From contig OZ243972.1 of the NCBI GenBank assembly GCA_965214705.1, forward strand, positions 736,001 to 800,000: a stretch of 64,000 bases of DNA, written 5' to 3'. The notes under the pieces were generated by a model. The model saw only the letters and a program-made list of their open reading frames with translations, was not told the DNA's origin and searched no databases. Both the position numbers and the translations under genes were made by a program. Source of the DNA: Alphaproteobacteria bacterium. GTDB lineage: Bacteria; Pseudomonadota; Alphaproteobacteria; UBA828. Of this stretch, positions 53,662-62,430 are shown in pieces (position 1 is the first letter of the stretch; each line of letters opens with the position of its first letter).

Positions 53662-54344
53662 GTGCGTAGGGCCGAGCAGTGGGATGCGCGAAACAAGAGT
53701 GAGGCGTTGGGAGGCGGAATGAAGGGCATCATCCTCGCCGGGGGCGACGGCACGCGGCTCTTCCCGATCACCAGTGTGGTCAGCAAGCAGCTCCTGCCCG
53801 TTTACGACAAGCCGATGATCTACTACCCCCTCAGCGTCCTGATGCTGGCGGGAATCCGAGACATCCTGGTGATCACGACGCCACAGCAGAGCCGAAACTT
53901 CCGAGACTTGCTGGGCGACGGCAATCAATGGGGCCTTGCGCTGCGTCATGCCGTGCAGCCGAGCCCCGACGGGCTCGCTCAAGCCTTCCTCATCGGCAAG
54001 GCCTTCATCGGGGACGATACCTGTGCCCTCGCACTCGGCGACAATATCTTTTACGGCTACGGATTGGGGAGGATGCTTCGCCGCGCGGCCTACCGGCAAA
54101 AGGGCGCTACGGTTTGAACGAAGCCGCTACGCGGAGTTAGCGGCGTAGAGTTCATTCATTTCCGAGGCGTCGCGGGTGCCGTTTGTTCTGTGCGTTCGCT
54201 TCCCGGTTGCGTCAGTGGCGCTCCGCCCGTCGGGTGGCGGATCCCCAGCAGCCTCCCGATCACCAGTGGTTAGCATCGACCCCTGCGACGGACCGTCGCC
54301 GGATCGGTCCGGCGGCGCGCCGTCGCGATCCAGGGAGATCGATA

Positions 54345-55223
54345 ATGACCGGGACCGCGTGCGACACGAACACCGTCACCCCTCTTCGCCAGCGCATGGA
54401 GGAGCAGCTCCGCATCGCCAATCTGGCCGCGAGCACGTCCAAGGCCTACATCTGCGAGATCAAGAACCTGGCCAGGTACTACGACGCCTCGCCGGACGAG
54501 CTCGACGCCGAGCAGGTGCGCCAGTGGTACCTGGGGCGGATCGACAAGGGGCTCAGTCCGGGCACGACCAACGTCTCCTTCGCCGCGCTGAACTTCCTCT
54601 ACATCGACACACTCGGCTGGCCTGACCATGTCGCCGGCCTGCGCTCCCGCAAGAAGCCCGGCAAGCTGCCGCGCTACATGTCGGAGCAGGAGGTCGAGCA
54701 CCTCATCCTTGCGACACCCGACCTCCGCCACCGTGCTGCCATTGTCACCGGCTATGGCGGCGGGCTCCGCATCTCCGAGACCTTGGCCATCAAGGTCGGC
54801 GACATCCTGTCGGAGAAGAAGCTGCTGCACATCCCCTCCGGCAAAGGCGGCACCGAGAGAATGGCACCGTTGCCGGACATCGTCATCCACTACTTGCGCG
54901 TCTACTACAGGAACATCTGGCCGCGTCCGACGAGCTGGCTCTTCTACGGCGTCTCGCTCGACAGGCCCATCGCAACGGAGACCTTGCAGGCCGCCTTCAG
55001 GAGGGCGCGCGACATTGCCGAGCTCGACCGCAGCTACACCTTCCATTGCCTGCGCCATTCGGCGGCGACCCATCTCCTCGAGCGCGGCGGCGATATCGAG
55101 GTGATCCGGGACATGCTCGGCCATCGAAGCGCGAACACGACCCGTCACTACGCCCGCGTCACCGGCAAGATGTTCGAGGGCCTCGACCACCCGATCTCAG
55201 GCTTCGCAGCGTTGCGCAACTGA
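54345..55223 (+). CDS. XerD-like tyrosine recombinase/integrase
   Basis: GLRISE, GKGG, HCLRH, LGH, ..HY catalytic residues. Confidence 0.93.
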   Translation: MTGTACDTNTVTPLRQRMEEQLRIANLAASTSKAYICEIKNLARYYDASPDELDAEQVRQWYLGRIDKGLSPGTTNVSFAALNFLYIDTLGWPDHVAGLRSRKKPGKLPRYMSEQEVEHLILATPDLRHRAAIVTGYGGGLRISETLAIKVGDILSEKKLLHIPSGKGGTERMAPLPDIVIHYLRVYYRNIWPRPTSWLFYGVSLDRPIATETLQAAFRRARDIAELDRSYTFHCLRHSAATHLLERGGDIEVIRDMLGHRSANTTRHYARVTGKMFEGLDHPISGFAALRN

Positions 55224-57028
55224 CGGCGCGTGGAGGCCGAACGCGCGGGCGTGGCGGAGATCTTCCGCCGCGCCGGCGCCGCTTTCCGTGAGCGCCACAA
55301 AGGGCGCATCGACGCCGCCCGGCTCAAGGTCATGGGCGCCATCGAGGCGTGCCGCACCGCCGTGCTCGGCGGCCACATGTACGCCTGCGAGGGCTGCGGG
55401 CGCGAGCAATCGCGGTAGGGAAGCGGGTTGCCCCGCTCCCCCCGCGCAGATCCGGACGTGCCCGCTAAGGCATCCGGCTCCTCCCTCAGGTCGAACTGAC
55501 GGCTAGTCGTTGATCCGGCCACGGGTGTCGGATTCTCAGCTTGGGCCAGTGTCGAGCTTTAAGTTTGTCGATGTCGGCCCATGTAAATCGGTCCTTTTGC
55601 GATCTGCGGCGTATAATGGCGAGCCACACCCGCTTTAGGCGGACGAGGAAGCGTTGTAAGTACCGGCTGCTGGTCGGGACGGCATAGTAGTTCAGCCATC
55701 CGTCCACCACTTTGCCCAGCCACCTGGCCGTATCCTCGATGTTGTCATGCATCCGCCTGCGTAGCACCTCTTTGATCCGCTTCAGGGTGCGGGCCATCCT
55801 CTTCGCCATCGGCCTGCGCCCCAGCATGAAGTACCCCCGTCTGGTCTTCGCGCAGTAGTGTGTGAAGCCCAGAAAATCGAAGGTCTCCGGTCTACCCTGC
55901 CCTCGGCCTTGGCGGCGCTCTATGGCGTGCCGCCCGAACTCGATGAGCCGGGTCTTGTCGGGATGCAGTTCCAGGTCGAAGCGTCCGAGCCGCTCCTTTA
56001 CGGCCTCCAGAAAGCACTCCGCGTCCTGCTCGTGCTGAAAACCCACCACAGAGTCGTCGGCGTAGCGAACGATGATCGAGTCGCCGTTGACCTCGTGGCT
56101 GCGCCACTTCTTCTGGAACCAAAGATCGAGGACGTAGTGCAGATAAACGTTCGCCAAGATCGGCGAAATCACCGAACCCTGCGGAGTTCCCCGCAGGTCG
56201 TCACGCCACTCTCCAGCTTCCATGACGCCAGCGTTCAACCACTTGATAATCAGCCTGATAACCCGCCTGTCCCCTATCCGGTGCTCTAGAAACCGGACCA
56301 GCCAGTCCCTCGAAACCGTGTCGAAAAACTTGCGGATGTCACAGTCCACTATCCAGTTGATCTTGCGCCTTTCGATCCCGACCGCCAGCGCATCGAGCGC
56401 ATTGTGCGCCCCACGCTCGGGTCGGAACCCGTAGCTAAACCCCAGAAACTCCGCCTCGTAGATCGGCGTCAGGATTATCTCCGCCACAGCCTTCTGGACG
56501 ATCTTGTCCTCTATGGCCGCGACGCCGAGCGGTCGTGTGCCGCCATCCGGCTTCGGGATGTTCACCCGCCGTGATGGCGTCGCCCGGTACGCCCCCGAGT
56601 GCACTCGGTCGTGCAGGTCGGCGAGACGGCCTTCCAGCCCTTCCTTGTACATCCGCCACGTCAGGCCATCGACACCCGCCGCAGCGTCCTTCTTCAACTC
56701 GAAGAACGCCCAGCGCAGCGCAGCGCAGCGACCGTGACGTGATGGAGGAGCGTCGTGAGACGCACCCCAGGTTCCCTTTGTACAAACTGCCGTATCCGGT
56801 CAGCCGCTTGTGACACGCTCTCCCGGTCCTGCGTCCGGCGCGTGCTTTGGCCTTCCAGATTCCCCTTGGGCTCGGCCCTTGGCTCCACCGGCTCCGCCGG
56901 GGCAGGTGCCCCATTGTTCGCCGGCTTCATCGCTGTCGGGTCGGAGGAGGCGCCCCGCGAGGCTAGCCTCCGTCCGCCGCTCAAACGGCCCGTACGGTTT
57001 TCCCGTAAGCCGCTTTCACAAAGGTGTC

Positions 57029-58514
57029 TCAACGAAGGTTCAAGGACGGAACCAGTGAGATCAGGCGAACAAGCCCGTATTCGTCGATCAGCTTGCGCTC
57101 CGGCAACTGTTTCCAGCCAGCGTTGCGCCAGCGCTTGCGACGATGCGACCAGAGCCGCCGCACGATCCAGCCGTCAAGCTGGTGGAAGAGCCCGCGGACG
57201 TGGGCCTTGCAATAGTATTGGCCCCATCCCCGAATGATCGGGAAGGCTTATCCCCTTACATCCGGCTTCTCCATATGTGGGGTGCCGGATCGCTGGGCAC
57301 TTTACGGGCAACCCATTGAGACACGGAAGGAACTGCGACCGTGTCGGATACCGCCGCCGAGGTGATCGGTACAACATGTTGGGGAACCGGAGCCAGAGGG
57401 ATAAGCCTTTGATCGGGTTGATCTCGTCAATCAGCTCCTGCGTGCTGACAGGAGCCTTGCGCCGGGTACGCTGGCGAATCTGGTCCTTGAAGTGCCGGAT
57501 GGATTTCTCACGCGGAACCGCGTAGCGCGCTCCCCCGCGAACCCCGCTCTTGATCTTGGAGGACGACAGCCGGAGAGGCCGCTCGCCCTGCTTGATCTTG
57601 TAGCCGAGGAACTCAAACCCGTGCCTGACATGGACAATGCGGGTCTTCCCGGCGTTGAGGGACACACCCAGCTTTGCCAGAATCCGCCTGGCCGTCTCCA
57701 GTGCTGCGCGGGCTTCCCCGCGTGTGCGGCACGTGATCAGCCAATCATCGGCGTATCGCGTTAGTCGATAGCCGCGACGACGCATTTCCCAATCGAACGG
57801 GGTCAGCAAGATATTGCTGAGCAGCGGTGAAACGATGCCGCCCTGCGGAGTGCCCTGTTCGGTCGGCAGCCTCTTACCGTCGGCCACCACCCCGGCCGTG
57901 AGCATCTGCCTGAGCAGACCTAATACCCGGCCATCCGAGACTCGCTGGTTGACGAGTTCGAGGAGCTTTTCGTGGTCCACGGACCCGAAAAAGTCTTTCA
58001 AATCCGCATCGAGAACCCACTCGTTGCCCTCGTCCAGTTCCCTCCATATCTTGCGTAACGCTCCATGGGCAGACCTTCCTTGCCGGTACCCGTAGTTGGC
58101 ATCGTCGAACACCGGCTCGAAGATCGGTTCCAGCCGGTTCAGCAGCGCCTGCTGGCACACCCGGTCGTAGATTGTCGGGATGCCGAGCGGGCGGAACTTC
58201 CCCGGCTGGCCCGCCTTGGGGATCAGGCATTGGAGAACCGGCTGCGGGTGATACTCACCGTCCCGCAACTCCCGGTGCAGGCGATCGAGATTTGCATCCA
58301 GCGATGCCTCGAACGCCGCTAAATCCTCTCCGTCCACGCCACCGGCACCCCGGTTGCGCTTCACCTTTTCCCAGGCCACCTCAAGGTTCTTCCGCTTGTA
58401 CACCTTGTCCACCAGTGAGTGGACCTTCCTGTCACCCGCCGGGTTGATCCAGTCGATGAGTCTCCTCGGGCCATGATGTCCGGGTCTTTCGCTCAAGGAA
58501 CTTGTCCGCGTCAT
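57029..58514 (-). pseudogene. inner intron RT/maturase disrupted by a MITE
   Basis: KVHSLVDKVY, GTPQGG, YADD; ..INPI|IRGWGQYY.. resumes after the insert. Confidence 0.9.
57243..57409. mobile_element. 167-bp MITE (IS1595 ISSod11-like ends)
   Basis: 12-bp IR AAGGCTTATCCC; 8-bp duplication TGATCGGG at 57235-57242 and 57410-57417. Confidence 0.88.
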
Positions 58515-61416
58515 GGTCCTTACTCACTCATCGCTGTCTCTCGCCGACCACCTCTGCCAACCGCCTTCCCCGGCCCACACGGCCGCCGCTCGCGCGGTCA
58601 CCCGGCTTTCGCCGGGCTTCAGGTACTATTCGGTTGTCCGATTGCTCGCCGCGCATCCTTTCCCATTTCGCCTTTCGGCTTATAGGGTCCGTTATCCCGG
58701 TGCCACCCGGGAACGCGGCGAGCCCTCCTGGGGTCACGTCCAGATCTTCCGTACCGTGCCGCTCGCAAACACCTTGGTGCGACGGGTGGGTAAGAACGCC
58801 TTCGCCGCCATAGTGCCGGCTCGACCTTGCCCCGTCTTTGGCCGACCGATTCATCATGGGGTGGCCCCCTCGATTACGGCCCGGTACTTCTCCGCAAGCC
58901 CTTCAGATTCCACCTCGCGGTGGACACCCTGCCTTCCGGTTGTCTTTCGACAGTGGACCAACTTAGCTCCTCCCTTGGCTGTCTCCGCCGTTTCCGGCTT
59001 CGTGCCCGTTTAGAGTTTCGCTTATCGGCTCACTCCGGCCAGTGAGGAATTACCCCCACTTTTGGATATGGCGCCCCTTACCCGAGCGCCAGTGGGACTT
59101 GAACCCACCTGATCTGGGCGCTGCCCAGCACACACTATGGCCGAGTCTGATTTCTCCATGTCGTTCATCTTCGGTTACGGACTCCTCCTTTCCTCAGCGT
59201 TCCCGCCACGACTCAGCGGGATGACATGGAGACCTCCCAGGTCCCGGTGCAGTGCGTACGTACGTGCGTGGGTTCTCTGACACCGCGGGATTCAGACCCC
59301 CCTCGCCATATCGGTGGGCCAGATGCGACCTTCGGCCAACGAAAGAGCCTCGGCATCCCGGATGATGTTTCTTTCGGTGCTCAATAGCCCCGCCCACACG
59401 CGCCCCTGTCAACGCTTGACCCTCGCCCTCGCGAGCGACGGCCCATGACTCGGGGTGGAAGTGGTGGCTCACCTTCTCCTTCCTGTTGGACTTTCACCAA
59501 CTGCACTCGCACCAGTTCGCCTGGCGCACTCCGCTCTTCAACTCCTGCCGCAACCGCCACTGCCCCACCTGCCAGGGTCTCGCCGCCAACCTCTGGAGCG
59601 AGGAGCGCGCCGGGGACATCCTGCCGGTGCCCTACTTCCATGTGGTCTTCACCCTGCCCAAGGAGGTTGCCGCCATTGCCTTCTGCAACCGCAGGGTGGT
59701 GTTCGACATCCTCTTCCGGGCCGTCGCCGAGACCCTGCGCACCATCGCCGCCGATCCCCGCCACGGCGGCATGCGCATCGGCGGCACCGCGGTCCTCCAT
59801 ACCTGGGATCAGAAGCTCCGCTTCCACCCGCACCTGCACGTGGTCGTGCCCAACGCGGGCTTCGACGTAGACAGTGGCGAGTGGAAGACGGGGAGCACCA
59901 CCTTCCTCGCCCCCGTCAAGGTCCTCGGCAGCCTGTTCCGCCGCCTCTTCCTCGAGGAGCTCGCCCGCGCCCACGGCCGGGGGGACCTGGAGTTCCACGG
60001 CACCCTCGCCCACCTCGCCAATCCCGGCGAGTTCCACGCCACGCTTGCCGCCGCCCGGGCCAGGGACTGGGTGGTCTACGCCAAGCGGCCCTTCCGCGGG
60101 CCTGAGCAGGTCTTCCGGTACCTCTCGCACTACACGCACAGGATCGCCATCTCCGACAGCCGCATCGTCTCCTTCGACGGCGAGACGGTCTCCTTCCGCC
60201 ACCGAAAGCCCAAGGCGCCGGGGCAGAGAAAGCCGCGCTACGGCATCGCCACCGTGAGCGCCGACGAGTTCATCCGCCGCTTCCTGAGGCACGTCCTGCC
60301 GGACGGCATGCACCGCATTCGCTACTTCGGCATCCTCGCCAACGGCTGCCGCGCCAGCACGCTGGAGAGAGCACGCCAGGCTCTCGGCGCCCTCGGCTGC
60401 GCCGCCCCCGAGGGAAGCGTGGACGGCGCTCGGGCCGAGCCCGACGAAGAGCCCGAGATCGGCACCGCGCCCGTGGCCTGCCCCCACTGCGGCGGCGTCA
60501 TGCGCCTCGTCCGCGAAATCCGCCGCCGCCATGAGCCCCGCTCGACGCGCGGCCCGCCGGCGCTGCCGCCGACCCACAGGGGGAAACCGTGAGACGCCCG
60601 CTCGCTTCGGCCCCGCGCAACGGCGCCAAAGCGCCGACGCACGACCGAACCTGTCTCCGCTTGAGCCGGGCTGACAGCCCTCGGCTCACACCCCGCTCAG
60701 TCCTCGCAGCGTGCGCCCGCATGCCTGCCGAAAGACCGGCGCGAGCGTCGATTTTATGCGCAACTCTGCTGCCGGTGGATGCCGCCTGACGCTGACATCA
60801 GCGCACTTTCCACATAGCTCAACTTCGCCTCTCGTGGCCCGCGGCTTCGTTCAAAAGGGTTGGGCAGGCTCTCGAGAGAGAGCCTGCCCAACCCTTAACC
60901 TTTCGCGTACCCGGTTCGCGATCCGGAGCGTTACGGCGTCGTCGCCTTCGACGCGAGTGGCCGCGCGACCGCCATCGAGGAGAAGCCCCGGCAACCGCGC
61001 TCCCGATGGGCGGTTACGGGGCTCTATTTTTACGACAACGACGTCATCCGCATCGCCGAAGAGATCGAACCGAGCGCCCGCGGAGAATTGGAGATCACCG
61101 ACGTCAACCGGCGCTATCTCGATCGCGGCGACTTGCGAGTCGAGCAGTTGGGCCGAGGATTCACCTGGTTCGACACCGGGACGCACGACAGCCTGGTGGA
61201 GGCTTCGAGCTTCGTCCACACCATCGGGAAGCGCCAGAACCAGTGCATCGGCGTTCCGGAGGAGATCGCATACCAAAACGGCTGGATCGACCATACGGAG
61301 CTCGCCGCGCTCGGACATCGTCTGCGCCGGAGCAGCTACGGCCAACACCTGTTGCGGCTTGCCGGCGAGCTCGACGGGAGCGATGCCGCTGTCCCAGAGC
61401 CGTATTCCAACGCTCG

Positions 61417-62430
61417 ATGACGGACCGGAGCCAGACTCCGCAAGAGGCTGCCGCCCCCTGCCATGACGATCCGCCCGGCGAGGTCAGCGTCATCATGGTC
61501 TCATACAGGACCGGGCCCGTGCTCGCGCCTGCCGTCGACGCGGTGCTTGCGCCCGATCAAGAGGGCGTTGGCGAACTGATCCTCGTCGACAATGGCAACC
61601 CGCCAACGGTGACGGCGACGCTCGCCAGCCGGACGGACGCGGACCCGCGGCTGCGCATTGTCAGCGGTCATGGCAACGTGGGCTACGCGCGCGGCTGCAA
61701 CCTCGGCGCGCGAGAGGCGCGGGGACGCCACCTGCTGCTACTGAACCCGGACTGCTGCCTCAGGCCCGGCGCGGTTCCGGCGCTGCTGACGGAAGCTGCC
61801 GCGCTCGGCGACGAATGGATGCTGGGCTGGCGTGTGCGCAATCCCGACGGCACCGACCAGCGCGGGTCGCGGCGGGCGTTGCTCACCCCGCTCACCGCGC
61901 TTGTCGAGGCGTTCCGGCTCGACAGGCTCTCTCCCACGCTGTTTCAGCAACATCGGCTTAGCCAACACGAGACCGCGCTTCCCGAGGTTACGGCCCGCGT
62001 GCCTGCCATCAGCGGCGCCTGCATGATGCTGCCGGCCACCACCTATCGCGCCGCCGGCGGCCTGGACGAGGGCTACTTTCTGCACGTCGAAGATCTCGAC
62101 CTCTGCCTGCGCCTGCACCGGGCCGGGATCCCCATCTACTTCGCACCCCACGTGGAGGCGGTTCATCACGCGAGCACCAGCCGCACGCACCCGCTTCTGA
62201 TCGAGTGGTACAAGACCCGCGGCTTTCTCCGCTACTTCGGGCTGCACTACGGCAGGCTTCATTGGCTGCCCGTTCTGGTGCCGTTGGCGGCAGCGACCCT
62301 CGGCCGTTTGGGCCTCCGGGCCATGCTGACGTTTTCCGTCCTGCCGGGCAGCGCGCTGAAAGTCGTCGTCCGCCTCGCTTATTCCACCAAGCGCCCTGGA
62401 TGGAGGCTTGACGGGCCGCGGTCGTGGTAA
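61417..62430 (+). CDS. GT2 glycosyltransferase (rhamnosyltransferase-like)
   Basis: LVDN, NVGYARGCN, LLNPD, SGACM, GLDEGYFLHVEDLDLC. Confidence 0.88.
   Translation: MTDRSQTPQEAAAPCHDDPPGEVSVIMVSYRTGPVLAPAVDAVLAPDQEGVGELILVDNGNPPTVTATLASRTDADPRLRIVSGHGNVGYARGCNLGAREARGRHLLLLNPDCCLRPGAVPALLTEAAALGDEWMLGWRVRNPDGTDQRGSRRALLTPLTALVEAFRLDRLSPTLFQQHRLSQHETALPEVTARVPAISGACMMLPATTYRAAGGLDEGYFLHVEDLDLCLRLHRAGIPIYFAPHVEAVHHASTSRTHPLLIEWYKTRGFLRYFGLHYGRLHWLPVLVPLAAATLGRLGLRAMLTFSVLPGSALKVVVRLAYSTKRPGWRLDGPRSW

Follow-up and report, generated by a model that had tools for sequence, protein, structure and literature searches.

The present analysis concerns a 64,000-nt stretch of DNA from an alphaproteobacterium of the lineage UBA828 (GCA_965214705.1, contig OZ243972.1), referred to here as the window, which corresponds to C1:736001-800000 of a 7.92-Mb genome assembled in three contigs without Ns. 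The window carries rfbA, a gene for glucose-1-phosphate thymidylyltransferase, at positions 53719-61420, and this gene is interrupted by a 6.79-kb nest of mobile DNA with four layers. From the outside to the inside, the order is rfbA, an IS91-family insertion sequence (IS), a group II intron (intron A), a second intron (intron B), and a miniature inverted-repeat transposable element (MITE). The region is very probably a dead rfbA gene that holds a stack of four unrelated mobile elements, each of which entered by its own mechanism, and all four of which are multi-copy and have been recently active in this genome. The features are given below in map order, with positions counted from the first nucleotide of the window (CDS, coding sequence; ORF, open reading frame).

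53719..54113, + strand: rfbA, 5' part, residues 1-132, ending in GATV; the last codon takes the T at 54114
54114..55408, + strand: IS left arm, with the tyrosine recombinase CDS and the first 60 transposase codons (55230-55408)
54345 (probable ATG) to 55223 (stop), + strand: tyrosine recombinase CDS in the IS left arm, matching Pfam Phage_integrase and Phage_int_SAM_4
55409..56934, - strand: intron A, 3' segment, with the reverse transcriptase/maturase ORF past codon 12, and domains V/VI at 55409-55482
56715..56729, - strand: GCTGC x3 tandem pentamer, of which the extra unit frameshifts the intron A ORF, in this copy only
56935..57242, - strand: intron B, 3' segment, containing the last part of the maturase ORF and hairpins that resemble domains V and VI
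57243..57409, unstranded: MITE of 167 bp with 12-bp perfect terminal inverted repeats (AAGGCTTATCCC), in the maturase domain of B
57410..59133, - strand: intron B, 5' segment, containing ribozyme domains I-III and the greater part of the reverse transcriptase ORF; GUGUG at 59133
59134..59529, - strand: intron A, 5' segment, with domains I-IV and the first 12 ORF codons (ATG at 59168)
59530..60902, + strand: IS right arm, with the remaining transposase (to 60592) and a subterminal hairpin at 60855-60896
60903..61420, + strand: rfbA, 3' part; the frame begins at 60902 with FAYP

Every layer was tested against natural, uninterrupted copies, with no in silico joining of sequences. The comparators were 66 complete IS copies free of introns, MITE-free copies of intron B, empty relatives of intron A, and contiguous rfbA genes in five congeners. 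An earlier note on this DNA had proposed the same hierarchy, from rfbA through an IS91-type element and two introns to a MITE, and had called for a search for simpler intermediates. The hierarchy is borne out structurally at every coordinate it claimed, the boundaries of the layers matching those described save for an ambiguity of 1-2 nt at the IS ends, and empty sites were found for each of the four layers.

The outermost layer is resolved by rfbA itself. Its N-terminal part matches positions 1-131 of the 286-position model TIGR01207 at 221.9 bits, which is under the whole-protein cut-off of 360.65 because half a protein, the N half alone, was scored. The Pfam domain NTP_transferase (245 positions) is divided between the two fragments, with positions 1-129 on the N part and 136-243 on the C part. 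Aligned to a paralogue, the fragments cover residues 21-152 and 153-299 and abut exactly, and in all five orthologous loci of congeners (L035-L039) they are contiguous, so the reading frame GATV-FAYP that had been predicted to return on removal of the IS does exist in nature. The three closest of these congener loci read ...ACGGTT/TTCGCG... across the site, i.e. ...GGCGCTACGGTT/TTCGCG..., where the slash marks the point of insertion. Relative to uninterrupted homologues, the insert is the sole gain and there is no loss.

Nine sub-segments of the nest were used in BLAST searches of the genome, and at 90% or more of their length, with the window copy included, the IS left arm gave 97 matches and the right arm 89. 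The two arms abut exactly at the join of window positions 55408 and 59530 in 73 copies, just where excision of the outer intron (55409-59529) had been expected to restore the frame, and 66 of these keep both outer ends. An intact copy is 2668 bp long and reads CEGCGREHPLFNSC at the arm join (...CEGCGREHPLFNSCRNRHCP...). The recombinase frame is open in all 66 complete copies and the tnpA frame, of 413 codons, in 62; the transposase of an intact copy scores 382.5 bits against the NCBIfam IS91 model NF033538 (cut-off 125), with further matches to Pfam Y2_Tnp and, over the whole model, to Zn_Tnp_IS91 (1-90). In the window the latter domain is split at model position 48/50, with positions 1-48 on the left arm, and 50-90 together with Y2_Tnp on the right. 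A tyrosine recombinase lies directly upstream and on the same strand in 65 of 67 related transposase loci from public genomes that had enough upstream DNA, and the two-gene layout is therefore common to an IS91 subgroup. Such two-gene IS91 elements are also listed in ISfinder. One related tnpA locus (L109), which had an over-long match, was tested for an intron at the same site and gave no Rfam match.

The IS ends, TTGAACG... and ...AACCTT, are not inverted repeats of each other. Six nt in from the right end there is a perfect hairpin of 19 bp (z = -8.3), and the left-end hairpin is weak (z = -0.35). By BLAST the element extends over 54114-60902 with TT at both ends, and the net insert is 2 nt shorter, corresponding to the frame-restoring segment 54115-60901. 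All IS copies have TT at both ends, the empty sites (rfbA orthologues, intron B) hold a single TT, and the same 2-nt overlap is seen where an IS lies inside a copy of intron B. This pattern fits either a 2-bp duplication or a 2666-bp element lying beside a TT-containing target. Of the 66 complete copies, 56 have Y immediately before the left TT and 32 have G immediately after the right TT, and the reconstructed target is most often C-TT-G (16/66).

Intron A occupies 55409-59529 on the minus strand, antisense within the transposase gene, and starts with GUGCG at 59529. The Rfam model group-II-D1D4-6 (RF02005) matches 59271-59494 with 172.1 bits (gathering score 49), and RF00029 (D5/D6) matches 55409-55482 over the full model, with 36.1 bits, which is under the gathering score of 40. 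The encoded protein scores 359.6 bits against TIGR04416 (cut-off 300) and has matches to Pfam RVT_1 and GIIM. Being antisense in tnpA, the intron is not removable from the tnpA mRNA by splicing. Intron A was inspected by eye for an exon-binding site (EBS1) that would be complementary to its 5' exon ...GAGCGGA, with no convincing match, and neither intron protein, of A or of B, has an HNH/En domain in Pfam. In the window the intron A frame is broken twice, once by intron B and once by the pentamer, a lesion absent from the earlier note. In three other copies of intron A the repeat is GCTGC x2, and in one of these the frame stays open for 480 codons from the B junction.

Intron A, whole or truncated, is also present at a second kind of site, at C1:365870-366059, C1:2012891-2015463 and C3:1780162-1780418. 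This second site, ...GGAGTGGGAGCGG/, resembles the site in the IS, ...GGAGTTGAAGAGCGGA/, and looks like the outcome of ectopic retrotransposition guided by the same exon-binding motifs. In addition, there are elements of about 576 bp in which 300 nt at the 5' end resemble intron A (69% identity) and 83 nt at the 3' end resemble its 3' end (92%), with no ORF between. Five such copies were seen (C1:421655-422230; C1:1859939-1861185, two in tandem; C1:2635899-2636474; C3:1789282-1789857), and they are probably ORF-less derivatives of group II introns.

Intron B (56935-59133, minus strand) lies at codon 12 of the reverse transcriptase ORF of intron A and in the same orientation, which is the arrangement of a twintron. 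An intact copy is 2024 bp, starts with GUGUG and specifies a reverse transcriptase/maturase of 436 aa with 383.8 bits on TIGR04416 (cut-off 300) and 69.7 bits on GIIM. Its ends are flush and do not vary over 21 junctions on the 5' side and 20 on the 3' side, and are always preceded by YRTAGT and followed by A. In the window, the junction splits a valine codon (gt/a) between SAI and AMKP, 4 nt upstream of a second in-frame ATG of the intron A ORF (SAIV/AMKP). Four A-type introns are free of B, and such relatives read SDSAIVAMK and SDSPIVAMKP across the site, as anticipated for SAIV-AMKP once 56935-59133 is taken out. Where the site exists, B is present in all five copies of A and in seven of 11 A-like relatives of about 70% identity. 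Twelve of the 20 3' junctions lie in ORF starts of A-type introns, and three of the eight other 3' flanks then run into different group II reverse transcriptase ORFs, of 42-45% identity. A candidate EBS1 in B, ACTATGG, is complementary to the 5' exon CCATAGT, as read from the sequence. Folding of the 3' end gives a D5-like hairpin of 34 nt that contains an AGC triad, and after it a D6-like stem. Judged from these sequence contexts, B appears to be an intron that homes into introns and, having the same orientation as A, could be spliced out of it.

The innermost layer is flanked by an 8-bp duplication, TGATCGGG, at 57235-57242 and 57410-57417. Thirty full-length copies of the MITE occur across the genome, 26 of which have a perfect 8-bp duplication. 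The earlier note had reasoned that removing 57243-57409 and keeping one copy of the duplication would restore INPI-IRGW; intact copies of B indeed read INPIIRGW across the site (EINPIIRGWGQYY). There are about 14 MITE-free copies of B, and 15 matches to the 1724-bp 5' part, at 98% or more identity, overlap the 3' part by the 8-bp duplication. A 1473-bp element at C1:3176396-3177868 has the ends of the MITE, an 8-bp duplication, and the domains DDE_Tnp_IS1595 and Zn_ribbon_IS1595, making this IS1595-type element the putative parent. Another pair of MITE ends 1675 bp apart (C1:386746-388420) was considered as the parent and rejected, as it consists of a MITE holding another IS of roughly 1.5 kb. 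That IS has about 25 copies in the genome, and the 8-bp duplication of its host MITE is intact, so that it represents a small nest of its own. The window MITE is unlike most copies at the adjacent bases 57365-57366, and the copy at C1:2835929-2836095 is identical to it.

The earlier note held that every inserted element inactivates the mobility gene of the element that hosts it. This applies in cis to intron A, which lies antisense in tnpA, and to the MITE in B, where the Pfam GIIM match seen in the intact intron is lost. It does not necessarily apply to B in A, since B is inserted in sense and just upstream of the second ATG and need not disable its host intron; in Thermosynechococcus twintrons, which have this arrangement, the proteins are described as active when expressed from the second ATG (PMC2882425). 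As for the mobility of the IS itself, the recombinase frame and both ends are intact in the window, and an open tnpA could be supplied in trans from 62 copies.

The anatomy of the nest, its boundaries, the copy families, the empty sites and the target motifs are all directly observed. From these, and with insertion mechanisms taken from the respective families, we infer the following course of events. A two-gene IS91-family element, with a tyrosine recombinase and an HUH Y2 transposase, would have inserted at TT in rfbA. Intron A, lacking an endonuclease, would have entered a defined site in the zinc-finger region of tnpA, antisense, by reverse splicing and reverse transcription, and intron B, also endonuclease-less, may recognise YRTAGT/A at the start of other introns' ORFs, and so would have homed in sense into codon 12 of A to form the twintron. 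A non-autonomous, IS1595-type MITE presumably then transposed into the maturase region of B, generating the 8-bp duplication, and replication slippage may afterwards have added the GCTGC unit to the ORF of A. Layers 2 and 3 are not a matter of chance because homing is site-specific, and the landing of a MITE in some copy of B is estimated to be roughly a 1-in-7 event, given 30 MITEs and B DNA amounting to about 0.5% of the genome.

The statement that the nesting hierarchy is fully resolved holds for the spatial order and not for the order of events, as the IS carrying A with B inside it (IS::A::B) recurs at three more loci. It is complete at C3:1608235-1616530 and C1:4022019-4038504, a hybrid form occurs at C3:2982884-2993820, and a truncated A with B, A(B), is found at a non-IS site (C1:2012891-2015463); the flanks differ among all of these loci. 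Spatial nesting therefore does not fix which event came first at rfbA. The three further composites span 8.3-16.5 kb, are without the MITE, and contain other multi-copy insertions within A, B or an IS arm. These inserts measure 1.66, 1.68, 2.03, 1.97, 3.7 and 4.5 kb and have 18, 25, 22, 4, 2 and 1 full-length matches in the genome, respectively (self included), and nesting at those loci is accordingly at least as deep as in the window.

The recurrence of IS::A::B raises the possibility that the IS already carried A(B) when it moved into rfbA, as a 6.6-kb unit with transposase supplied in trans, and that only the MITE and the pentamer were added in place. We consider this a serious contender, though somewhat less probable than not. 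It would account for the complete composites at two other loci with unrelated flanks, plus the hybrid, and for the absence from the genome of any IS::A without B; both ends of the window IS are intact, and 62 of the 66 complete copies have an open tnpA frame from which transposase could come. All four composite copies of B also share allele C at window position 58564, a site at which the alleles are split 9:10 among all copies of B. Against movement as a single package, the IS right arms of the three complete composites belong to different haplotypes (G,C,T,G; A,C,C,A; and G,G,T,A at positions 425, 476, 789 and 903), unless gene conversion among the roughly 90 copies has reshuffled them, and each minor allele is common to 5-23 other IS copies. 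The differing haplotypes favour entry of the introns into different resident IS copies. A(B) at the non-IS site also indicates that the twintron moves without the IS. Since A is never found without B, and allele C at 58564 is common to the composites, movement of either A(B) or the whole composite as a unit is favoured. On balance, layering in place, with A(B) possibly arriving together, ranks somewhat above the transposition of a pre-assembled IS::A::B.

Read evidence consisted of short-read contigs only. In four runs from two studies, contigs contain the intron-free IS joint (a skip of 4121) and the MITE-free B joint (a skip of 175, with 8 nt shared). Several points weigh against the layered structure and its interpretation as set out above. 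No short-read contig spans the whole 6.8-kb nest. Listed contigs of the runs X1, X16 and X18 cross from rfbA into the IS, but reach only 26-28 nt into it, under the 31-letter rule for bridging. Contigs of three runs show GCTGC x2 alone, and x3 is without independent confirmation. The location of the MITE-bearing B and of x3 rests on the assembly, because the contigs are short and there are three other near-identical IS::A::B composites. For intron B, no Rfam model reaches its gathering score (RF02001 at E = 0.56 for the window copy, none at E <= 0.1 for the intact copy). Finally, TT flanks the IS on either side and an empty site has just one, which differs from the rule for the IS91 members that have been studied, namely no duplication and a tetranucleotide target, CTTG in the case of IS91 (PMC13181058). 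Among the contig pieces listed, the MITE/B junctions and the right IS/rfbA junction are not bridged. An empty-rfbA joint was not among the pieces listed in the four runs, which is not evidence of absence. Contig depths in run X1 (about 7 for single-copy flanks, 27 for intron A, 95 for B and 465-530 for the IS) roughly parallel the copy numbers in the assembly but do not measure copy number, and were not used as evidence. Sponge, coral and marine metagenome runs contain small shares of the sequence words of this DNA, and no conclusion is drawn from them.

A rival account is an assembly artefact, i.e. a repeat-induced chimera in which the true insert is a plain IS or an IS::A::B, and the MITE-bearing B and/or x3 has been misplaced or is a long-read error. 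Four near-identical composites and about 90 IS copies would allow such misplacement, no read spans the nest, and in the short-read contigs the pentamer is always x2 and the MITE letters at 57365-57366 are always those of the consensus. The nest is, however, perfectly symmetrical, with the element halves in the right order and on the right strand, an 8-bp duplication that matches on both sides, and a single gene whose halves enclose the whole, and the genome is in three contigs without Ns. Rare variants are lost from contigs, so that a single-copy variant would be expected to be missing from them, and x2 in the contigs is likewise expected because the three other copies of A carry it. An artefact of this kind is judged very improbable.

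A broader interpretation, which is speculative and in our view unlikely to hold as a whole, is that B is a hyperparasite of the protein-gene starts of other group II introns, having invaded at least five lineages, and that the A(B) twintron is retromobile as a composite. The latter is suggested because A is never without B, the composites share one B allele, and A(B) is found in different IS haplotypes and at a non-IS site. Separately, the two-gene IS91 subgroup might integrate by means of its tyrosine recombinase at TT, and not by the classical, duplication-free rolling circle.

Several known systems resemble parts of the stack. RmInt1 homes into ISRm2011-2 in Sinorhizobium meliloti (PMC1802570, PMC8914252), and, like intron A, is an endonuclease-less bacterial group II intron with a natural homing site within an IS, of which only some copies are occupied. 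It differs in that its host IS belongs to another family, whereas intron A lies antisense in an IS91-type tnpA and is always accompanied by a second intron. In Thermosynechococcus elongatus, TeI3 is found within TeI4, with the inner introns between the first two ATGs of the outer ORF, and one composite is described as TeI4g::ISEL2f (PMC2882425). Features in common with the present system are the position of the inner intron, right where the outer ORF begins and between two ATGs that are in frame, the disruption of an intron ORF by an IS, and inner copies that are near-identical in outer introns that have diverged. The authors of that study weigh composite retromobility against separate mobility (PMC2882425). 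The inner introns there are ORF-less and reliant on the outer protein, whereas B encodes its own reverse transcriptase/maturase and invades several lineages; here, moreover, the twintron lies in an IS and the IS in a gene.

Nested introns are also present in an archaeon, Methanosarcina acetivorans, for which the primary paper is reportedly that of Dai and Zimmerly from 2003. The likeness to the window is in the repeated, site-specific homing into the ORF regions of other introns. Up to five introns are nested there (PMC4424553), but that system consists of introns only and has no coding flanking exons, whereas the present one combines three kinds of element and interrupts a sugar gene of housekeeping type. 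With IS91, IS801 and IS1294, the window IS shares a Y2 HUH transposase that has a zinc domain at its N-terminus, and a subterminal palindrome on the downstream side of tnpA; its commonest target context, C-TT-G (16/66), resembles the CTTG of IS91 (PMC13181058). It differs from them by the tyrosine recombinase gene directly upstream, and by having TT at both ends and one in the empty site. Twintrons have been called rare in bacteria (PMC4649490).

The nest is real and neatly resolved, yet it is an ordinary consequence of a burst of mobile elements, and since both twintrons and introns that home into IS elements are already in print, its novelty is low. It can serve in teaching and for benchmarking annotation and assembly software, as an example in which four-deep nesting mixes three classes of mobile DNA and every intermediate is kept in the same genome. 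It also adds one more bacterium in which homing into other selfish elements lets introns survive and a twintron may move as a unit, without altering any current concept.

On one side, rfbA is neighboured by rfbB and rfbD, which pass the cut-offs of TIGR01181 (450.6 bits) and TIGR01214 (261.1 bits), respectively, and on the other side by a family-2 glycosyltransferase. Two further copies of rfbA, at C3:436535-437403 and C3:461560-462428, give identical BLAST matches with about 80% nucleotide identity to the window gene, and their spacing of 25 kb suggests a segmental duplication. Given these copies, the broken gene may be dispensable. For the host, one of three rfbA copies has been inactivated, within a dTDP-rhamnose cluster, and the surface polysaccharide may or may not change.

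A near-identical IS was not found in 20 congeneric genomes; two contain it at about 80% identity and three more have fragments at 70-75%. The genome under study measures 7.9 Mb, compared with 2.8-6.3 Mb in all 20 congeners listed, and the IS alone makes up roughly 0.24 Mb of it.

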